Of a DNA stretch of 64,000 nucleotides, positions 36,772-59,108 are shown piece after piece (positions within the stretch are counted from its first letter, which is position 1; every line of letters starts with the position of its first letter). The notes below the pieces were generated by a model. It saw nothing but the letters and a program-made list of their open reading frames with translations, searched no databases and had not been told where the DNA came from. Made by a program: the position numbers and the translations under genes. This DNA comes from Eledone cirrhosa (taxonomy: Eukaryota): the NCBI GenBank assembly GCA_964016885.1, contig OZ024741.1, positions 222,518,001-222,582,000 on the forward strand, given 5' to 3'.

Positions 36772-37330
36772 ATCCCAGTGCATTACTGGTACTTTATTTC
36801 ATCGACCCCGTAAGGATGAAAGGCAAAGTTAACCTCGGCGGGATTTGAACTCAGACCATAAAGGACTGTAATTCTTTGCTGCAAGGCATGGCGTCCGACC
36901 CTCTACCGATACTGCCAATCCACCATTGTTAATAATTGTTTCTACTTTAGGCAGAAGGCCAGCAATTACCCAGTGCATTACTGGTACTTTATTTTATCGA
37001 CCCCGTAAGGATGAAAGGCAAAGTCAACCTCGGCGGGATTTGAACTCAGATCGTAAAGGGACGTAACTATGCTGGAAAGCATGGCGTCTGACCCTCTACC
37101 GATACTGCCAATCCACCGCCCTTTGTTAATAATTGTTTCTACTTTAGGCACAAGGCCAGCAAATACCCAGTTCATTACTGGTACTTTATTTTATCGACCC
37201 CGTAAGGATGAAAGGCAAAGTCAACCTCGGCGGGATTTGAACTCAGATCGTAAAGGGACGTAACTATGCTGGAAAGCATGGCGTCTGACCCTCTACCGAT
37301 ACTGCCAATCCACCGCCCTTTGTTAATAAT
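36772..37330 (-). mobile_element. Three head-to-tail Meta-like tRNA SINEs (period about 195 bp)
   Basis: CCCAGT.CATTACTGGTAC recurs at about 36774, 36968 and 37167. B-box GAGTTCAAATCCC is on the minus strand. Confidence 0.8.
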
Positions 37331-37369: not shown

Positions 37370-37632
37370 TTATATTAGCTTCACGCTTGGGGGAAGTGCA
37401 GGAGGATTCGACGTTTCAGACAGACTTCAGAGCAACTGTCTCTGCCGAAAATTATAGAGCCTGGATTCTTATAGAATTCCAGTAATAATCAGGAACTGAT
37501 TATACAGAGCGGTTGCCTGTCCAGCAAAAATTAAAAGTTAGGATTGGTGCCCTGAAATAGCGATGTATAAATGAATGGCAATATACCGTATGTTTAATTA
37601 AAAACATTTTGAAGACCTTGCGCTATCATTTT
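37370..37632 (-). mobile_element. Diverged relative of the 310-bp unit with a decayed HHR; further pieces at 38040-38150 (plus) and 38183-38242 (minus)
   Basis: Shares CTTATAGAAT, CAGGAACTG, AGAGCGGTTGCC, CTGAAATAGCGAT and AACATTTTGAAGACCT with the 310-bp unit. Confidence 0.75.
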
Positions 37633-37679
37633 AATCCAGCCTCTATAATTTTAGGCAGAGACATTGCTCTCAGGAACAC

Positions 37680-37845: not shown

Positions 37846-38146
37846 GTGTGTGTGTGGTGCTGGTGGTGGGGGGGGAGCATCGCGTATCATTCCATATTTA
37901 AGTATGACCACTATCATATATTTTAGGTGGTATCTTCTGTAAGTTGCTGCTGTTGTTGCTTCTGCTGTTGTTGCTTCTGCTGTTGTTGCTTCTGCTGTTG
38001 TTGCTTCTGCTGTTGCTGTAATCAAAAGTCTCTACCATAAAATGATAGCGCAAGGTCTTCAAAATGTTTTTGAATTAAACATACGGTATATTACCAAATA
38101 TACTATACATACATTCATATATACATCGCTATTTCAGAGACCAAGC

Positions 38147-38186
<40 letters not shown>

Positions 38187-38239
38187 GCTTGGTCTCTGAA
38201 ATAGCGATGTATATATGAATGTATGTATAGTATATTTGG

Positions 38240-38309
<70 letters not shown>

Positions 38310-38629: not shown

Positions 38630-39216
38630 ATATTTCGGTAAACCCATACGTACATATATATATGTGTGCATGTATGTATATACATACTACTGTACGTCTG
38701 TATACATATATGTATGTACGTATACATATTTACATTTAAGTATCAGCTGTACTAAGAGTGAGAAATGAAAATTCATTTTTACCATTTATCGTTTTTGGTA
38801 CGCCTGGCCGACTAACTCACTCGATATGTAAATTAGGCTGCTCAGCCGTTAATATGCATCAGGAATATATATACTTTCAAACGTTCAATCAACTGACAGG
38901 AAGGTATACGGTGCTGATGACAGCTAATAAGCTAGAAACTACTTCATCGTTCCTTTGTCAGTGTTGAACAAAATGGCAACGATGGTTGCCGAACACTGTA
39001 CGGCTAATAATTCGGGCTGTTTGTTTACAAACAAACCGAGCATTATAATAAATGTTCGGTAAACCCATACTTACATATATATATGTGTGCATGTATGTAT
39101 GGATATACATACTACTGTACGTCTGTATAGATATATGTATTACGTATACATACATTTATGTATCAGCCGTACTACGAGTGAGAAAGGAAATTTCACTTTT
39201 TCCATATTTTTTCCAT
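38630..39216 (+). mobile_element. Family C 1.4-mer (period about 421 bp) with a partly decayed HHR at 38893-38961
   Basis: TTCGGTAAACCCATAC at 38634 and 39055. HHR reads ACGGTG-CTGATGA-CAGCT-aata-AGCTA-GAAACTACTT-CATCGT. Confidence 0.8.
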
Positions 39217-39223
39217 ATATATA

Positions 39224-40869
39224 TATGGTATCCCTAAAGTACATAAAAGTGAATTAATAAGTAAGGCATGCAAAGAAGCCACAGACATAGTCATCAATGT
39301 CCCCTCACCCAATGATCTCAAATTAAGACCTATAATAGCAGGCCCCGCTTGCGAAACCCACCGCCTTAGCAACTTCATTGATACCCTTCTCAAACACATC
39401 AAAAGCTATATAAGGGACGACCTAGATATGCTCAATCACCTCCCTAATATGCCCCTTTCTGAACAAACCCTACTAGTGACGTTCGATGTAGTCAACCTAT
39501 ACTCCAACATCCCCCACAACCTACGAATAGAAGCTATCCAATTCTGGCTGGATAATTACCACAATGAACTCCCACAACGCATCAAAAAAGAATTCGTGAT
39601 AGAGGGACTCAAATTTATCTTGGAGAACAATTACTTCGTTTTCAATAACAAACCCTACAGGCAGAAATCTGGGACAGCTATTGGAACGAAAACAGCCCCC
39701 TCTTATGCCAACCTAGTCATGGGATACCTGGAAATCACCCTCTACACTAAATTCCTAAACAAATTTGGAAACACTCTCCACTTACACATAGAAAGGAACT
39801 GGAAGCGATATCTAGATGACTGCTTCATCCTTTGGCACGAAAACATCGAGAAACTTAAAGAATTCCACACCCTTATAAATGGGCTCAACACGAATATTAA
39901 CTTTACGATGGAATACAGCCATCAACAACTCCCCTTCCTCGACATCCTCATTAAGATTCATCACAAAAAAATAGAAACAGACATATACTACAAGCCCACA
40001 GACTCCAAGCAATATCTTCCTTTCAACTCTTGCCACCCTAGACACGTTAACATTAATATTCCCTACAACTTAGCCAAGAGAATCTGTACTATAGTCTCCA
40101 ATAAAAACACCTGCTACTTACGGCTACAAGAACTAAAGGACACACTCATAGGCAGGGACTACCCTGCATCACTAATTGACAATGGAATCCAACGTGCCCT
40201 AAAACTCAGTACCCAAGACCTTAGACACCCTAAAGTAAATCAACCGAAACTAAAAGCTCTTCCATACATCTCCACACACAACCCTCTCAACAATGAGGCC
40301 TTTGACACCATCCTCCAGAACATCCCTGTGTTGAAAAAGGACCATAGAATGAACCAAATCCTACGAACACACGATATCATAAAGAGCAAAAGACAATCTA
40401 AGTCAATGAAAAACATCCTAACACATGCCAAAGTACTGCAAACCACAACAACGAAACCCACAGTAAAAAAATGCGATAGACCCAACTGTGGCATATGCAT
40501 CAACCTAATAGAGGGTTCGGAATTCTATTTCAAAGAAGGACACGTTTTATAGTAAAACACAATTTCACATGCGCATCAGAAAATTTAATATATGTATTAA
40601 CTTGCTCAGGTTGTCGAGAACAATACATAGGCCAGACCAAAAACAGCCTCCGCCAACGCATGACTGTCCATAGATCCCAAATTAAAATATGGGAATACAG
40701 GAAAATACCACTGAGTGAACACATTGATACCTGTGCCGCCCAAAATCATCCCAACTTCAGAATCTTTCCCCTCTACAAATTTAAAGATAATGCCACCCAC
40801 ACCCAGCGCATCAGCAAGGAATCTTACTTAATTAACAAATACGGACCCCGTCTAAACACTTCTCCCTAA
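39224..40869 (+). pseudogene. PLE reverse transcriptase-GIY-YIG ORF with one frameshift near 40545
   Basis: YGIPKVHK, LRPIIAG, FDVVNLYSNIP, GTAIGTKTAPSYANL, RYLDDCF, LPFLD, YYKPT, SCHP, CDRPNCGIC, then LIYVLTC..YIGQT..R..H in the next frame. Confidence 0.92.
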
Positions 40870-53479: not shown

Positions 53480-56400
53480 ATAAATGTCTTAACATAAGAA
53501 AACAAAACTTCTGGAAAGCATTCAAATGCGAAATATATGTCGGAACACATTCGAAATGACTCTCTCTAACGGCACCCATACTCCCTCGTAAATACCTAAT
53601 TACAGAAATTGCAGGAGAACCAGATGAAGAAACAAAACTCCGATGGGAACTTACATTGACATAATTCAGGACCGGCATCTCCATTACTCAATGTAAGCAA
53701 TCCCGCTACAAAGCCAAATAGAAGCTATCGATGACCAAATTGAAGTCGAAATTTCAAAGCTAACGACTGGTAATATAGCTGAAAAACTACGAGAACTATG
53801 GATCAGAGATATCTCAAAAGAAGAAAGCAAATCAAGAAAGTTATGGCAGCAGAAACAATTATTTCTCGACGAATATGCTGCAAATTACGGTAAAGACTCT
53901 GGAATTCTGAGAAAAAGCATTAAAAGTGAACAATCTCGCCAACACAACATACGCCAGAACACGTGGCAACACAAACACTCACCTTACCTTGAATCAAAGA
54001 AGAACTACGGTAATAACTCTTCGCTTTTTCTACAAAAACACCCTAACGCACACAACATGAACAAAAAGCACAAACACGATAGATATTCCTTTGACCAGAT
54101 CAGGAGAAGTAGAAAAACCAGGAGATCTTTCTCAAGATCTCAACAGGAACGGAAGAAAAACGTAGAATAACCAGATCACTCTCAAGATCTCAACAGAGAT
54201 GACCCACAATAAAATGGGCGAAAAAAACGATTTAAACCTGAAAGCAAACCTAGGTCATTTTCCCAGATTGTTAAAAATAATGCTAACAAGAAATGGAAAA
54301 ATAATATACATAATACCAAAAATAGGACAAAAAACATAACGAAACCAAATATAATATCACGACCAAAAGTTCATCAAGCAAACACCAACAGGAATATAAA
54401 TCCGGAACATAGAAAAATCCATTTTTTAACGTCAGGACAACAAAAACCGGAAAAAGAAAGACTCCAGGAGGAAACATACCCAAACAACTGAACACGTAGA
54501 TCCTAAAATAATTAATTTATCCAAAAGAGATCTCGACAATGATGAAATGCAAATTCTGTCAAAAGGACTGAAATTCACACCGACTCCAACAGTCAACCAC
54601 CAAGAACCGAAGGAGGATACCCAAGAATTGTGTCGAAAATTACGATTTGTAGAATTCTTCGCTGATAAAAGTAATGAGAGTGATGAATCACTAGTAAAGA
54701 ATAAATCAAATTTCACTCCGCCAAAAGGAAGAAATATCTATCTCGACCAATACATTGACATCCTGTCTAAATTTCCTCTTAGACGTAATACAAATGTTAG
54801 GCCAAACATTAACAAATCAGAAATGTCTGCACTTAAACGTATAAAAAATGATAAAACAATAATAATTAAACAAGCAGATAAAGGGGGTGCAATTGTTATA
54901 ATGGATGCTGAATACTACAAAGACTTGGTTGAGGAACAACTGAAAGACACAACATTCTATCATGAAATACCGTCAAATATAGACCACAACATCATGAAGA
55001 AGATCAACAACCTGGCTTCAAAATAGTACAACTCACTTACTGATAAGGAAAGAGACTAATCACCAATTTTGAGCCAAAACCCAGCAACCTCTATGGCCTA
55101 CCGAAAGTTCATAAGTCAAAAGAAATCCAACTGGCAGTAAAAGAACAAAAAAGTGAGTACATTAAATTACTACACCCCAAAAACTTAAAACTTAGACCTG
55201 TTATAGCTGGTCCAACATGCCCTACCAACCGTCTAAGCAATTTTGTTGACATTATTTTGAAACCACTATGTATTCCCATATCAAGTTTCATCCGGGATGA
55301 TATCGACTTCCTGTCCCATCTTCCCAAAACCACGGAAACGAATTCACTTCTACTTAGTTTTGATGTGGTAAGCCTTTACACCAACATTACACATGATTTA
55401 GGAATAAAAGCGGTTAAACTGGGTGGAAAAACAGAGAAGCGATTCCCACCAGATTCACAGCGCCATTTATATTAGACGCACTCAAACTTATTCTGGAAAA
55501 CAACACTTTCTTCTTCAATGGAAAGAATTACATCCAAATTAGAGGCACAGCGATGGGAACGAAGTTTTCTCCCGTTTACGCGAACTCTGTAATGGGATAC
55601 TTAGAACAACAACTCTACCAAGAAATAGGGGAAAAATATAGTACTGACTGTAGAAAGTACATTGAAAAATCTTGGAAGAGATACCTTGACGACTGTTTCA
55701 TCATCTGGACAGAATCTCTAGATACTCTGGATGAATTCAATATCCTCCTGAATAACCTACACCCATATCTTCAATTCACAAAAGAGATGAGTAGTACCAA
55801 ATTACCATTCCTAGATATAATGTTAATCAAAAACGACACCACCATTACCACGGATATATATTATAAACACACAGACACCCATCATTATCTGAATTTTAAA
55901 TCGTGCCATCCACCTCATACAAAACGCAACATCCCATACTGCCTAGCCAGAAGAATTTGTACCATTGTAGAAGATACGAATACCAGGTACAAACGCCTAA
56001 CAGAACTGAGAGGATTTTTGCTCAAACAAAAATACCCATCTCTACTTATAGAAAATGGCATACAACGGGCTATAAAAATACCATACAACAACTTAGGACA
56101 ACCCAAGGAAGAAGAAATCAAGAACTGGCCATACCATTTATAATGACACACAACCCATGTCACCAGAATATCTTCAACACTGCCAAAGCAAACCTACCAA
56201 TCATTGCTCAAAGTAATGAATTAAAAGGTTTAATCACAGACCGATATTTGACTCTTAGTAAAAGACAGCCGAAAAGTTTGAAGCAATTACTAACAAAAGC
56301 AAAGTTTGACCTTAACAACAAAGACCAATCATTCACTGTATCTAAATGCAATGATAGTCGATGCGGCACATGTCAATCCATACACGCCGGTCAATATATG

Positions 56401-56535
56401 AAAACAAAAACTGGAAAAATATTCCCAAATGCAAATATGAACTGCAAAAGCAGAAATCTAATTTACTGCATTAAATGCCCGAATTGTGAAGAACTATATG
56501 TCGGTCAAACTGGAAATGCACTATCGGAACGTGCA
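53480..56535 (+). pseudogene. Near-full-length decayed PLE ORF (Neptune-like RT and GIY-YIG), 3'-truncated
   Basis: IINLS..LSKGLKFTPTP, IKQADKGGAIV, LYGLPKVHK, GTAMGTKFSPVYAN, RYLDDCF, SCHP, CNDSRCGTC, LIYCIKC..YVGQT. Several stops and frameshifts. Confidence 0.92.
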
Positions 56536-56674
56536 CGAGCCCGAAGACTCATCAGGCCGGTACTCATCCCGGTCTCCGTGATGCGAAGCAACTGAGAGTA
56601 CAGACTACCCTCTGGACAGGATGCCAGTCTATCGCAATATATATATATATATATTGCGATAGACTGGCATCCAT

Positions 56675-57113
56675 TATCAAGGGGAGATAAGCCGACAAGG
56701 TCTTGTTTCGCATTTATTGATGCTTATCAAGGCTAACTACTCCCTCCTGTCTACTGAGTTCACTGATGTTATATTCTTATAGAATTCTAGTAATTAACCA
56801 GGAACTGATTATACAGAATTGGAGCTCTGAAATAGCAATATATATATGAATGTATATATAATGTATTTTGCAGTGATCTCAGTGATCTTAGTAGACAGGA
56901 TGGAGTAGTTAGCCTTGATAAGCATCAATAAATGCGAAACAAGGCCTTGTCGGCTTATCTCCCCTTGTTTGCTGAGATTAAAGTAAGTGAGTTTGTCACT
57001 ACTCTAAAACAATAGCATACGGTCTTCAAAATGCTTTTAATTAAGCATAAAGTGTATTGCAAAATACATTATATATACATTCATATATATATATTGCTAT
57101 TTCAGAGCTCCAA

Positions 57114-57117
<4 letters not shown>
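56675..57117. mobile_element. Divergent insertion of a 310-family relative (minus arm 56678-56872, plus arm about 56881-57117)
   Basis: Shares GGTCTTCAAAATG, GCTATTTCAGAGC, TTCTATAAG and GTTCCTG boxes with the 310-bp unit. Each arm has an HHR. Confidence 0.85.
56887..56976 (+). ncRNA. Type I HHR with U3-A8 core (inverse copy at 56678-56758)
   Basis: AGCC-TTGATAA-GCAT-caataa-ATGC-GAAA-CAAGGCCTTG-TC-GGCT, with outer stem I CTTAGTAGACAGG/CTTGTTTGCTGAG. Confidence 0.85.
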
Positions 57118-57162
<45 letters not shown>

Positions 57163-58477
57163 ATATGTACACATAAATAAGACCGTTATTGCTCTAATCA
57201 CTGTGCGAACACCCTAAACCGAACGCCAGCCTGTACCCATGACTGATGCCAAACCAAACCGCACTCACTCTCCAAATTCGACAAATTAAACGCGGACCAC
57301 CCAACCTCCCAAACTTGGCTTATGCAGTAGCCACCTAATAAGGAAGACATACGTTATCAAGCTGCAGCTGTCATATTACGTAGTTTCTATAAAATAAAGC
57401 TAATATTATCTGCAGCGAGTACGACTCCATTACGTAATAAACCGTGCTCCACCTCCTCCCGTTGTCAAAATATCCACTTAGATCACGTGATGCCGTGCAT
57501 CGGAAGGTCTAGTTCTCACAACACAACATTATAACCAAAACAAAATAATAATAATCTAGAAAATAGCTAAGCCATAAACAAGCGAAATGAATACACGATA
57601 AAAACCACAAGAAGTCTAGTTTAAAACCATAAATACCCAAGCCATTAAAGAGATATGCGAAATGAATACAAGATGAAAAATACAAATACGGTATCAGAAA
57701 ATACGATACAATAACAAAAGGCGACGCAAAAGGTATAAACCTCAATGTCATTAGGGTCGGACGCTATGCTTTGCAGCATAGAGTTACGGCCCTTTATGAT
57801 CTGAGTTCAAATCCCGCCGAGGTTAATTTTGCCTTTCATCCTTACGAGGTCGATAAAATAAAGTACCAGTAATACACTGGGGTAATTGCTGGCTTTGTGC
57901 CAAAAGTAGAAACAATTATTTACATACCAATATATATAATATATACACACGAATATTAAGCATAATTAAGAGTAAATCATATATACACAAACCTACATGT
58001 ACAAATAGGATCAACCAGGCAATCAGAGATTTGCATAATTGATTAACGAAATCCTATCTTGACCGCCCCTAAGAATGTGACCATCCTTCAAAGCCAAAGC
58101 AGAGAAAGTAAAAGACAAAGACAGAAAGAATCACTAGCTATAGCACTTTGGTCAAGTATCGATCAATAAATGTATTACCTCTAAACAAAACTAAATTTCC
58201 CCAAGTGCAAATAGGTTAAATTTCTACAGCTCCAATGCAAAATTACACAACCTTTCTTTTTTAAAAATTACTACTTCAAGGCAAATATACTAAATTTTCT
58301 TAGATCTCAAAGCAAATAAATAAAATTAAGATTAAATTAAATTAAATTCTAAGCCATACGCTTTCTAAAACAAACTGAAACTAACCCCACCAAAATTTTC
58401 TTAGATTCATAGCCTTGCGTCGGACTATAGTTTGTGAGTGTGAAAGATTGTAGATTGAAATAGTTTTGCAGCCTGAT

Positions 58478-59105
58478 ATATATATAAATATATAAATGTA
58501 TATATAGTGTATTTTGCAATACACTGTATGCTTAATTAAAAGCATTTTGAAGACCTTACGCTATTGTTTTAAAGTAGTGGCAATGTCACTTACTTCTATT
58601 TTCAGCAAACAAGGGGAGATAAGCTGACAGAGCTCTGTTTCGTACTTGTTGGTATTTATCAAAGCTCAGCACTCCCCTGTCTGCTGAAAATTATGAATGT
58701 TGGATTCTTATAGAATACACTATATATACATTTATATATATATATATATCGTTATTTCAGAGCACCAATTTCAGAGCACCAATTCTTATTTTCAATTTTT
58801 GCTGGACCGGCAACCGCTCTGTATAATCAGTTCCTGATTATTACTGGAATTCTATAAGAATCCAAGATTCATAATTTTCAGCAGACAGAAGGAGCGCTGA
58901 GCTTTGATAAGTACCAACAAGTACGAAACAGAGCTCTGTCAGCTTATCTCCCCTTGTTTGCTGAAAATAGAAGTAAGTGACATTGTCACTACTTTAAAAC
59001 AATAGCGTAAGGTTTTCAAAATGCTTTTAATTAAGCATACAGTGTATTGCAAAATACACTATATATACATTTATATATATATCGCTATTTCAGAGCACCA
59101 ATTCT

Positions 59106-59108
<3 letters not shown>
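58478..59108. mobile_element. Divergent insertion of another 310-family relative (minus arm 58478-58716, plus arm 58715-59108, about 1.2 units)
   Basis: ATACACTATATATACATTT at 58715 and 59054. GGACCGGCAACCGCTCT and other boxes are shared with the 310-bp unit. Confidence 0.85.
58874..58968 (+). ncRNA. Type I HHR with U3-A8 core (inverse copy at 58598-58691)
   Basis: TGAGCT-TTGATAA-GTAC-caacaa-GTAC-GAAA-CAGAGCTCTG-TC-AGCTTA, with outer stem ATTTTCAGCAGACAG/TTGTTTGCTGAAAAT. Confidence 0.88.

Follow-up and report, generated by a model that had tools for sequence, protein, structure and literature searches.

A fixed 3′ junction downstream of hammerhead motifs in a putative new non-LTR retrozyme family

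In the window, that is, the whole 64-kb stretch of DNA analysed here, four insertions of a non-coding repeat family with a unit of about 310 nt all leave the element for a (TA)n tract at the same fixed position (hereafter J), downstream of a predicted hammerhead cut site. In the reading that we consider probable, the copies share this 3′ base because the (TA)n tract is nicked by a Penelope-like protein, which begins cDNA synthesis at J, an internal site on an uncleaved multimer or circle, where the flanking RNA fold would place it. The preliminary description of this DNA had proposed that reverse transcription starts at a defined internal site, and this part of it agrees with our favoured reading and has a direct precedent in the PAc element (PMC11167929). 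The mechanism is thus already known, and what is new is the 310 family with its internal-initiation footprint and candidate recognition fold. The result overturns nothing: a fixed retrozyme junction is what the PAc result predicts. In the literature that we searched no description of a fixed retrozyme 3′ junction was found; supplements and subscription journals may hold one.

The Fixed 3′ Junction

J was located relative to a conserved box, GCTATTTCAGAG, which occurs 25 times in the window with at most one mismatch, against 0.23 occurrences expected (18 copies in the 310-bp array and 7 dispersed). When the terminal copies are anchored on the box without gaps, the element is left at box+12 in three copies (5509, 57119, and 59107) and at box+11 in the fourth (~38150), which has a 1-nt deletion directly after the box. 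For the 57119 copy, the box lies at 57096..57107 (+), the junction at 57117..57120 (+; 1–3 nt are common to the TA tract), and the (TA)n tract to its right, the likely target, at 57119..57166. Depending on how the shared bases are assigned, the distance from predicted cut to end is 164–165 nt for the cut after 5345, 166–169 nt for the cut after 56951, and 167–169 nt for the cut after 58940. The preliminary description had put the four entries into (TA)n about 10–15 nt past the box and the cleavage-to-end distances at 165, 166, and about 167 nt; both hold on re-measurement, the former with a spread of 0–1 nt, as does its statement that the genomic 3′ end differs from the ribozyme-generated end, since the main arms stop 164–169 nt past the predicted cut.

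For these four junctions from one 64-kb window, simulation puts the chance that 4/4 ends fall within 1 nt at p = 2.5e-6 if ends are uniformly placed and at 1.5e-5 if they are confined to AT steps, of which each unit offers 37. The chance that four of seven arm ends coincide is p = 6e-4 (AT steps) to 1e-3 (AT or TA steps). These values bear on the idea that the ends reflect microhomology to a TA primer, or later rearrangement between TA tracts, and coincide through a strong local bias. Each of the four terminal copies does overlap the following (TA)n by 1–3 A/T nucleotides, one opposite arm and ten contigs of run X2 (see below) stop at an internal TA run, and in two copies of a second family a minor end falls on a TAT step, 17 nt past the cut. 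However, the internal TA run, which is a far better match, lies only about 25 nt upstream of J, yet 4/4 main arms use J, and with so many AT steps available in each unit the coincidence has a p of about 1e-3 or less, making microhomology or local bias quite unlikely as the source of J.

Across the cut-to-end segment the four copies are 68–91% similar. Their right flanks are unrelated in five of the six pairs, and in the sixth, 5510/59107, both copies are followed by a neighbouring repeat of another family (88%), as might be expected if the junctions were duplicates of one locus or if another TA-tailed element had inserted at J. We consider such non-independence highly improbable, given that the 5510 and 59107 element copies are only 70% alike against 88% for their neighbours and that the other flanks are unrelated. 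A second element inserted at J was discarded as a candidate because the rest of the unit is not found past the neighbouring repeats.

Internal units run on past J into a U-rich stretch. Over the 9–12 nt before J, internal and terminal units are identical within each insertion that has both, yet these bases differ between subfamilies, which suggests that J is set afresh from the unit and not inherited as a separate end. Under inheritance, run-off transcripts into (TA)n would acquire a (UA)n tail that anneals to nicked TA, and every daughter copy would carry the J of its founder, a scheme like that of SINEs whose tails are simple repeats, so that an internal start would be unnecessary. All four ends indeed abut (TA)n, where sequence cannot tell a tail from a target, and fixed TA ends are also seen in two other families of the window. 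Nevertheless, subfamily-specific bases are common to terminal and internal units right up to J (with 0 mismatches in the array), and a separate terminal unit would lose them without regeneration from one unit. Moreover, a (TA)9 remnant is also present on the left side, at 56637–56654, as expected of a split target. Together these observations leave an inherited end doubtful.

J might instead be a real RNA 3′ end that arises at the U-rich stretch, where transcripts would be processed or terminate leakily, and that serves for ordinary 3′-end priming. T4 or T5 does occur 1–12 nt past J in two subfamilies, but the 310 subfamily has only T3 there, T4–T5 runs upstream of J in 4/4 copies would stop Pol III earlier, and the 13.6-unit arm passes 13 such sites. 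ATTAAA is found in two of the four copies, 76–142 nt upstream, and poly(A) at no junction. We therefore judge a real RNA 3′ end unlikely and rejected a Pol III or poly(A) terminator as the main reading. The preliminary description had conceded that its proposal would fall if the site were simply a transcript terminator; in the plain Pol III or poly(A) form, such a terminator is disfavoured by this T-run and poly(A) evidence.

The Repeat Family and Its Insertions

The window is animal DNA with 35% GC and is rich in microsatellites. Its largest member of the family is an array with a 310-bp period (13.6 + 4.2 copies), in whose region (1–5510) no ORF of 120 aa or more was found. The repeat lies within the size range given for non-LTR retrozymes (non-coding tandem units of 150–450 bp), our motif scan places one type I hammerhead in each array unit, and the layout of tandem or inverted units ending on (TA)n points to the absence of LTR, PBS, and PPT. 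The fold of the 310-nt monomer is strongly self-paired (z = -5.7). A head-to-head inverted arm in three of the four insertions and an end on (TA)n in all four give the partial tandems and microsatellite target of a non-autonomous partner of a Penelope-like element. By its unit, hammerheads, and layout the 310-bp repeat is classed here as a putative new non-LTR retrozyme family.

Type I hammerheads were detected by a core-and-stems scan of the window in 17 array units, which have a C3-G8 core, and in 3 dispersed copies, which have a U3-A8 core, a variant known from Penelope-like elements (PMC4209133). Scanning the window against Rfam at gathering scores gave 0 matches, so the hammerhead assignment rests on the core-and-stems scan. 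Cuts are predicted after 5345, 56951, and 58940; the motif with the second of these, at 56907..56955 (+), has the U3-A8 core and a palindromic stem III. The predicted cut site is crossed by three of the four main arms and none begins there, the overrun being 21 nt plus 13 units in the array, ~70 nt in the arm starting at 56880, and ~225 nt in the arm starting at 58714. This argues against a cleaved linear monomer as the template.

The array consists of a main arm of 13.6 units at 1295..5509 (+), which has a hammerhead in each unit, 0 mismatches over 4216 bp, and an end at J, and an inverted arm at 1..1297 (−), which has 0 mismatches over 1297 bp and runs off the window; the two meet head-to-head at 1295–1297 with a 3-nt overlap. 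Such homogeneity is compatible with repeated copying of one molecule, and equally with a source array that was already uniform, with amplification at a later stage, or with smoothing during assembly. The second insertion has its main arm at 56880..57119 (+), starting upstream of the cut and so crossing it, and a head-to-head inverted 5′ arm at 56678..56872 (−) that ends at +16, holds a second hammerhead (cut at 56694), and has lost ~31 nt immediately past J. In the third, a copy of more than one unit at 58714..59107 (+) holds a box, an internal J that is read through, a hammerhead (cut after 58940), and a second box, and ends at J; its inverted 5′ arm at 58475..58716 (−) is 97% identical to it and stops at the internal TA run, immediately ahead of the box. 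The fourth insertion, at 38028..38150 (+), is 5′-truncated, has no hammerhead, and ends at J. Across its TA tract lies an exact 65-bp inverted duplicate of the copy's end (38184..38248, −), which was for this reason dropped as a fifth independent junction. A decayed copy at 37429..37670 (−) reads through J; half of its hairpin H2 (see below) is deleted and no hammerhead was detected in it.

The arm that meets the long TA tract is also the arm that ends at J; of the opposite arms, one stops at +16, one stops just before the box, and one runs off the window. Both complete opposite arms thus end away from J, as the preliminary description had cautioned, and this counts against a fixed start. Since the usual Penelope-like layout comprises partial tandems and an inverted 5′ copy (PMC8557442), we would interpret the opposite arms as the ordinary head-to-head 5′ inversions typical of these elements. 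The 5′-side arm ends at 56872, ~58714, and ~38245 lie within or next to hairpin H2, a pattern that would fit stalling or switching of the copying enzyme at this hairpin. In the flank at 58455–58475, 8 nt match the central part of the box exactly and lie 11 nt from where the inverted arm ends, a match due either to chance or to microhomology-guided joining.

Perfect inverted flanks of at least 12 bp surround only 2 of the 106 TA tracts in the window (56619–56672 and 38085–38248), both of which touch the 310 family. The former is a perfect palindrome of flank DNA (56619..56672) centred on (TA)9, lies 5 nt from where the inverted arm ends, and mirrors 19–20 bp of flank; the latter mirrors the last 65 bp of the element. 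These palindromes are compatible with fold-back priming at a cut TA tract or with extension of both strands from J.

Predicted RNA Fold Around the Junction

Folding predicts a conserved RNA domain upstream of J (57011..57101, +) that comprises a helix P1 (57011–57017 with 57095–57101) and two hairpins, H1 (57031–57048) and H2 (57052–57069). P1 is a long-range helix in which ATAGC near +60 pairs with GCTAT of the box, the 5′ half of the box thus being the 3′ strand of P1; it is predicted by single folds and by RNAalifold of five copies. Among these five, 4 of the 21 pairs in P1, H1, and H2 are changed on both sides, and pairing is held in 97.9% of 97 cells, against 30–51% when the partners are slid. 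Shuffled alignments reached the covariation score in 1/500 cases and the number of changed pairs in 24/500, counts that are not probabilities because the fold was derived from the same five related sequences. Local fold z-scores are -2.1, -3.8, -2.9, and -2.4 in the four terminal-type copies and -0.4 in the decayed copy. Overall, the fold evidence upstream of J is suggestive.

Downstream, the 3′ half of the box is predicted to pair with GCTCT ~40 nt further on, in the 310 unit and the decayed copy only. J itself falls in a predicted unpaired, pyrimidine-rich loop, which in the 310 unit is followed by a small GC hairpin. Several observations complicate this picture. First, when the whole 310-nt monomer is folded, ATAGC pairs within another helix, and P1 is thus not the sole option. 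Second, the downstream piece at 58775–58830 has a z of +0.3 and folds without the downstream helix. Finally, the inverted arm at 56678–56872 is without the downstream hairpin although its main arm ends at J, which counts against a need for it.

The preliminary description had suggested the box as a possible recognition signal for the reverse transcriptase. The predicted fold makes a stand-alone sequence signal less probable than a structural role, and two box-less families in the window also have fixed ends (see below). The box probably represents two helix strands of a larger conserved fold, and its conservation would be partly explained by pairing, although its sequence may be read as well. 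A text search of the literature for the box, GCTATTTCAGAG, returned unrelated papers only.

Proposed Mechanism and Comparison With Known Systems

We hypothesize that a Penelope-like reverse transcriptase/endonuclease, supplied in trans by a helper that would be a Neptune-type element, nicks a (TA)n tract and starts cDNA at one set position inside an RNA that is either an uncleaved multimer or a circle. The predicted three-helix domain upstream, together with the box-closed loop and GC hairpin downstream, may position the enzyme so that copying starts in the unpaired U-rich loop, where 1–3 nt of pairing with the TA primer would be enough. The 5′ ends would be finished by inversion and repair, leaving variable opposite arms. 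A bolder extension, which we put forward only tentatively, is that animal retrozymes carry their own RT loading module, a conserved multi-helix domain and template loop reminiscent of telomerase RNA. This module would set the start point on a circular monomer and promote rolling-circle copying that yields single-haplotype arrays of several kilobases, and the two strands of the cut (TA)n would both be extendable, leaving TA-centred palindromes. Were the loading-module reading true, the window would be the first genomic map of such a module.

The closest parallel to the proposed internal initiation at J is PAc, a Poseidon element of Anolis carolinensis (Frangieh et al., 2024; PMC11167929). According to the accessible text of that study, AT-rich DNA is nicked and copying starts 111–118 nt into the ORF, 85–92 nt past the hammerhead cut (at +26); genomic ends fall on the start sites, and in vitro both strands are extended and uncleaved RNA is the main substrate. 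PAc and the 310 family are alike in a fixed internal genomic 3′ end downstream of a hammerhead (4/4 main arms in the window), an AT-rich target, and little primer–template homology, and extension of both strands from the same sites in PAc can be listed as a further feature in common. PAc also needs RNA 3′ of the start (to +172), and in the 310 family conserved structure likewise extends past J. The differences are that PAc is autonomous and starts within its ORF, whereas the 310 family is non-coding and known here from sequence alone, and that the PAc start lies in an AC-rich stem loop 85–92 nt past the cut with two sites, whereas the 310 family has a predicted unpaired U-rich loop at 164–169 nt and one main site. 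An AC-rich stem loop with two adjacent sites (30–40 nt tail) has no match at J, which lies in its predicted pyrimidine-rich loop; a second end ~24 nt upstream of J, found a single time in the window and again among the X2 contigs, coincides with the internal TA run. The accessible text of PMC11167929 contains none of the words circular, Neptune, non-autonomous, or retrozyme.

Metazoan non-LTR retrozymes (Cervera and de la Pena, 2020, PMC7229834; Li et al., 2026, bioRxiv 10.64898/2026.07.22.740005) resemble the 310 family in their non-coding 150–450 bp tandem units with one type I hammerhead each, short or palindromic stem III, low GC, self-paired monomer, and co-occurring Penelope-like elements. 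As far as their text is accessible, these papers describe neither a fixed internal 3′ junction nor a structure at the start site, in contrast to the junction and predicted fold described here, and they state as open for animal retrozymes which enzyme acts, where it starts, and whether on a circle or a multimer. Neptune/Naiad-type Penelope-like elements and the non-autonomous Chlamys elements, for example MRC1 (Craig et al., 2021, PMC8557442), share with the 310 family partial tandems, an inverted 5′-truncated arm, microsatellite targets, no discernible target duplication, and non-autonomous head-to-tail derivatives, but Naiads are described there as lacking the hammerheads that the 310 family has. 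With the fixed junction and fold, internal initiation would no longer be limited to one autonomous element of a lizard but would include non-coding parasites of a probable cephalopod. The two also provide a ~150-nt candidate cis-element suited to the existing in vitro assay.

Public Sequencing Data and Pattern Scans

At least half of 27 words sampled from the 310 unit (1560–1869) were present in 20 of the 24 sequencing runs listed, and these 20 carry 18 organism codes and come from 17 studies; no RNA run carrying these words was among the runs listed. One run with the words is only 4 million letters long. In run X21, raw reads from one of these organisms, 0 of 12,836,656 reads matched the unit. 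This spread is most simply read as cross-contamination by a repeat of very high abundance, and related species or a mobile circle could also account for it. Runs X1 and X3 each yielded one unbranched closed contig of 310–340 nt, a form that arises equally from a circle or a DNA tandem array.

Run X2 gave 573 contigs with 33 loose ends, counts that are not copy numbers because copies entering (TA)n merge. Among the six of these 33 ends that were listed, the best supported (10 contigs) is the internal TA run at 1764, two sister-subfamily contigs leave the element at box+12 (loose end 1779), one contig enters TA at +170, and none lies at the array's own J. Ends other than J therefore exist. Summed depth in X2 falls from 635k to 439k across J, within the swings of 329k–635k seen elsewhere. 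The array has the letter less common in X2 at 1602 (other letter 267k/343k) and 1751 (346k/398k), and X2 is possibly another species. A pattern scan of metagenomes returned 14 loci, all chance matches by BLAST, and one of viral contigs returned 0 matches.

Penelope-like ORFs and Other Repeats in the Window

ORFs at 39182–40869 and 53483–56545 encode RT, a C-X4-C-X2-C linker, and GIY-YIG in Neptune/Nematis order, their clade being assigned here by domain order and linker motif alone. A C-X2-5-C-X2-C linker has been tied to microsatellite bias (PMC8557442). The second ORF (53483..56545, +) is broken, with a truncated GIY-YIG, and represents a candidate helper class. Among the 120 of 253 matches listed for its broken RT (55418–56140), the most identical named match comes from Octopus sinensis, at 71% identity across 67% of the query, and bivalves account for many others at ~50–63%, which makes a cephalopod source likely. 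No match to the box was found beside the Penelope-like ORFs of the 64-kb window, which thus holds no box-matching helper. A piece at 56546–56636 (−) with a CTGATGA core start and stem is cut off where it joins the truncated GIY-YIG region and is possibly the pLTR of another element.

Two further families end on TA at fixed positions. The second family, which has a hammerhead-like 3′ half, ends on (TA)n 22–25 nt past a conserved motif in 4/4 main arms (5576, ~17730, 23374, and 59161), and 96–101 nt past the apparent cut in the three main arms that hold it, a distance close to the 85–92 nt of PAc (PMC11167929). Minor ends at +17 are found in two opposite-type arms (5766 and 46086). In the third family, three copies (~30360, 39215, and 47420) stop on TA past the same motif, and a fourth (38780) reads through. 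In a window scan allowing at most one mismatch, GCTATTTCAGAG was absent from both families, which indicates that fixed TA ends are general among such repeats here and not specific to the box.

Insertions of the second family are palindromic and twice lie tail-to-tail with the 310 family on one TA tract. The third family forms partial tandems and lies immediately upstream of the Penelope-like ORF that starts at 39182. At 36774, a repeat of 197 bp resembles what we take to be a known octopus SINE tail. A 60-bp tandem of 61 copies at 10467–14127, with open frames rich in Thr/Asn or Val/Leu, is either a mucin-like exon or a satellite.
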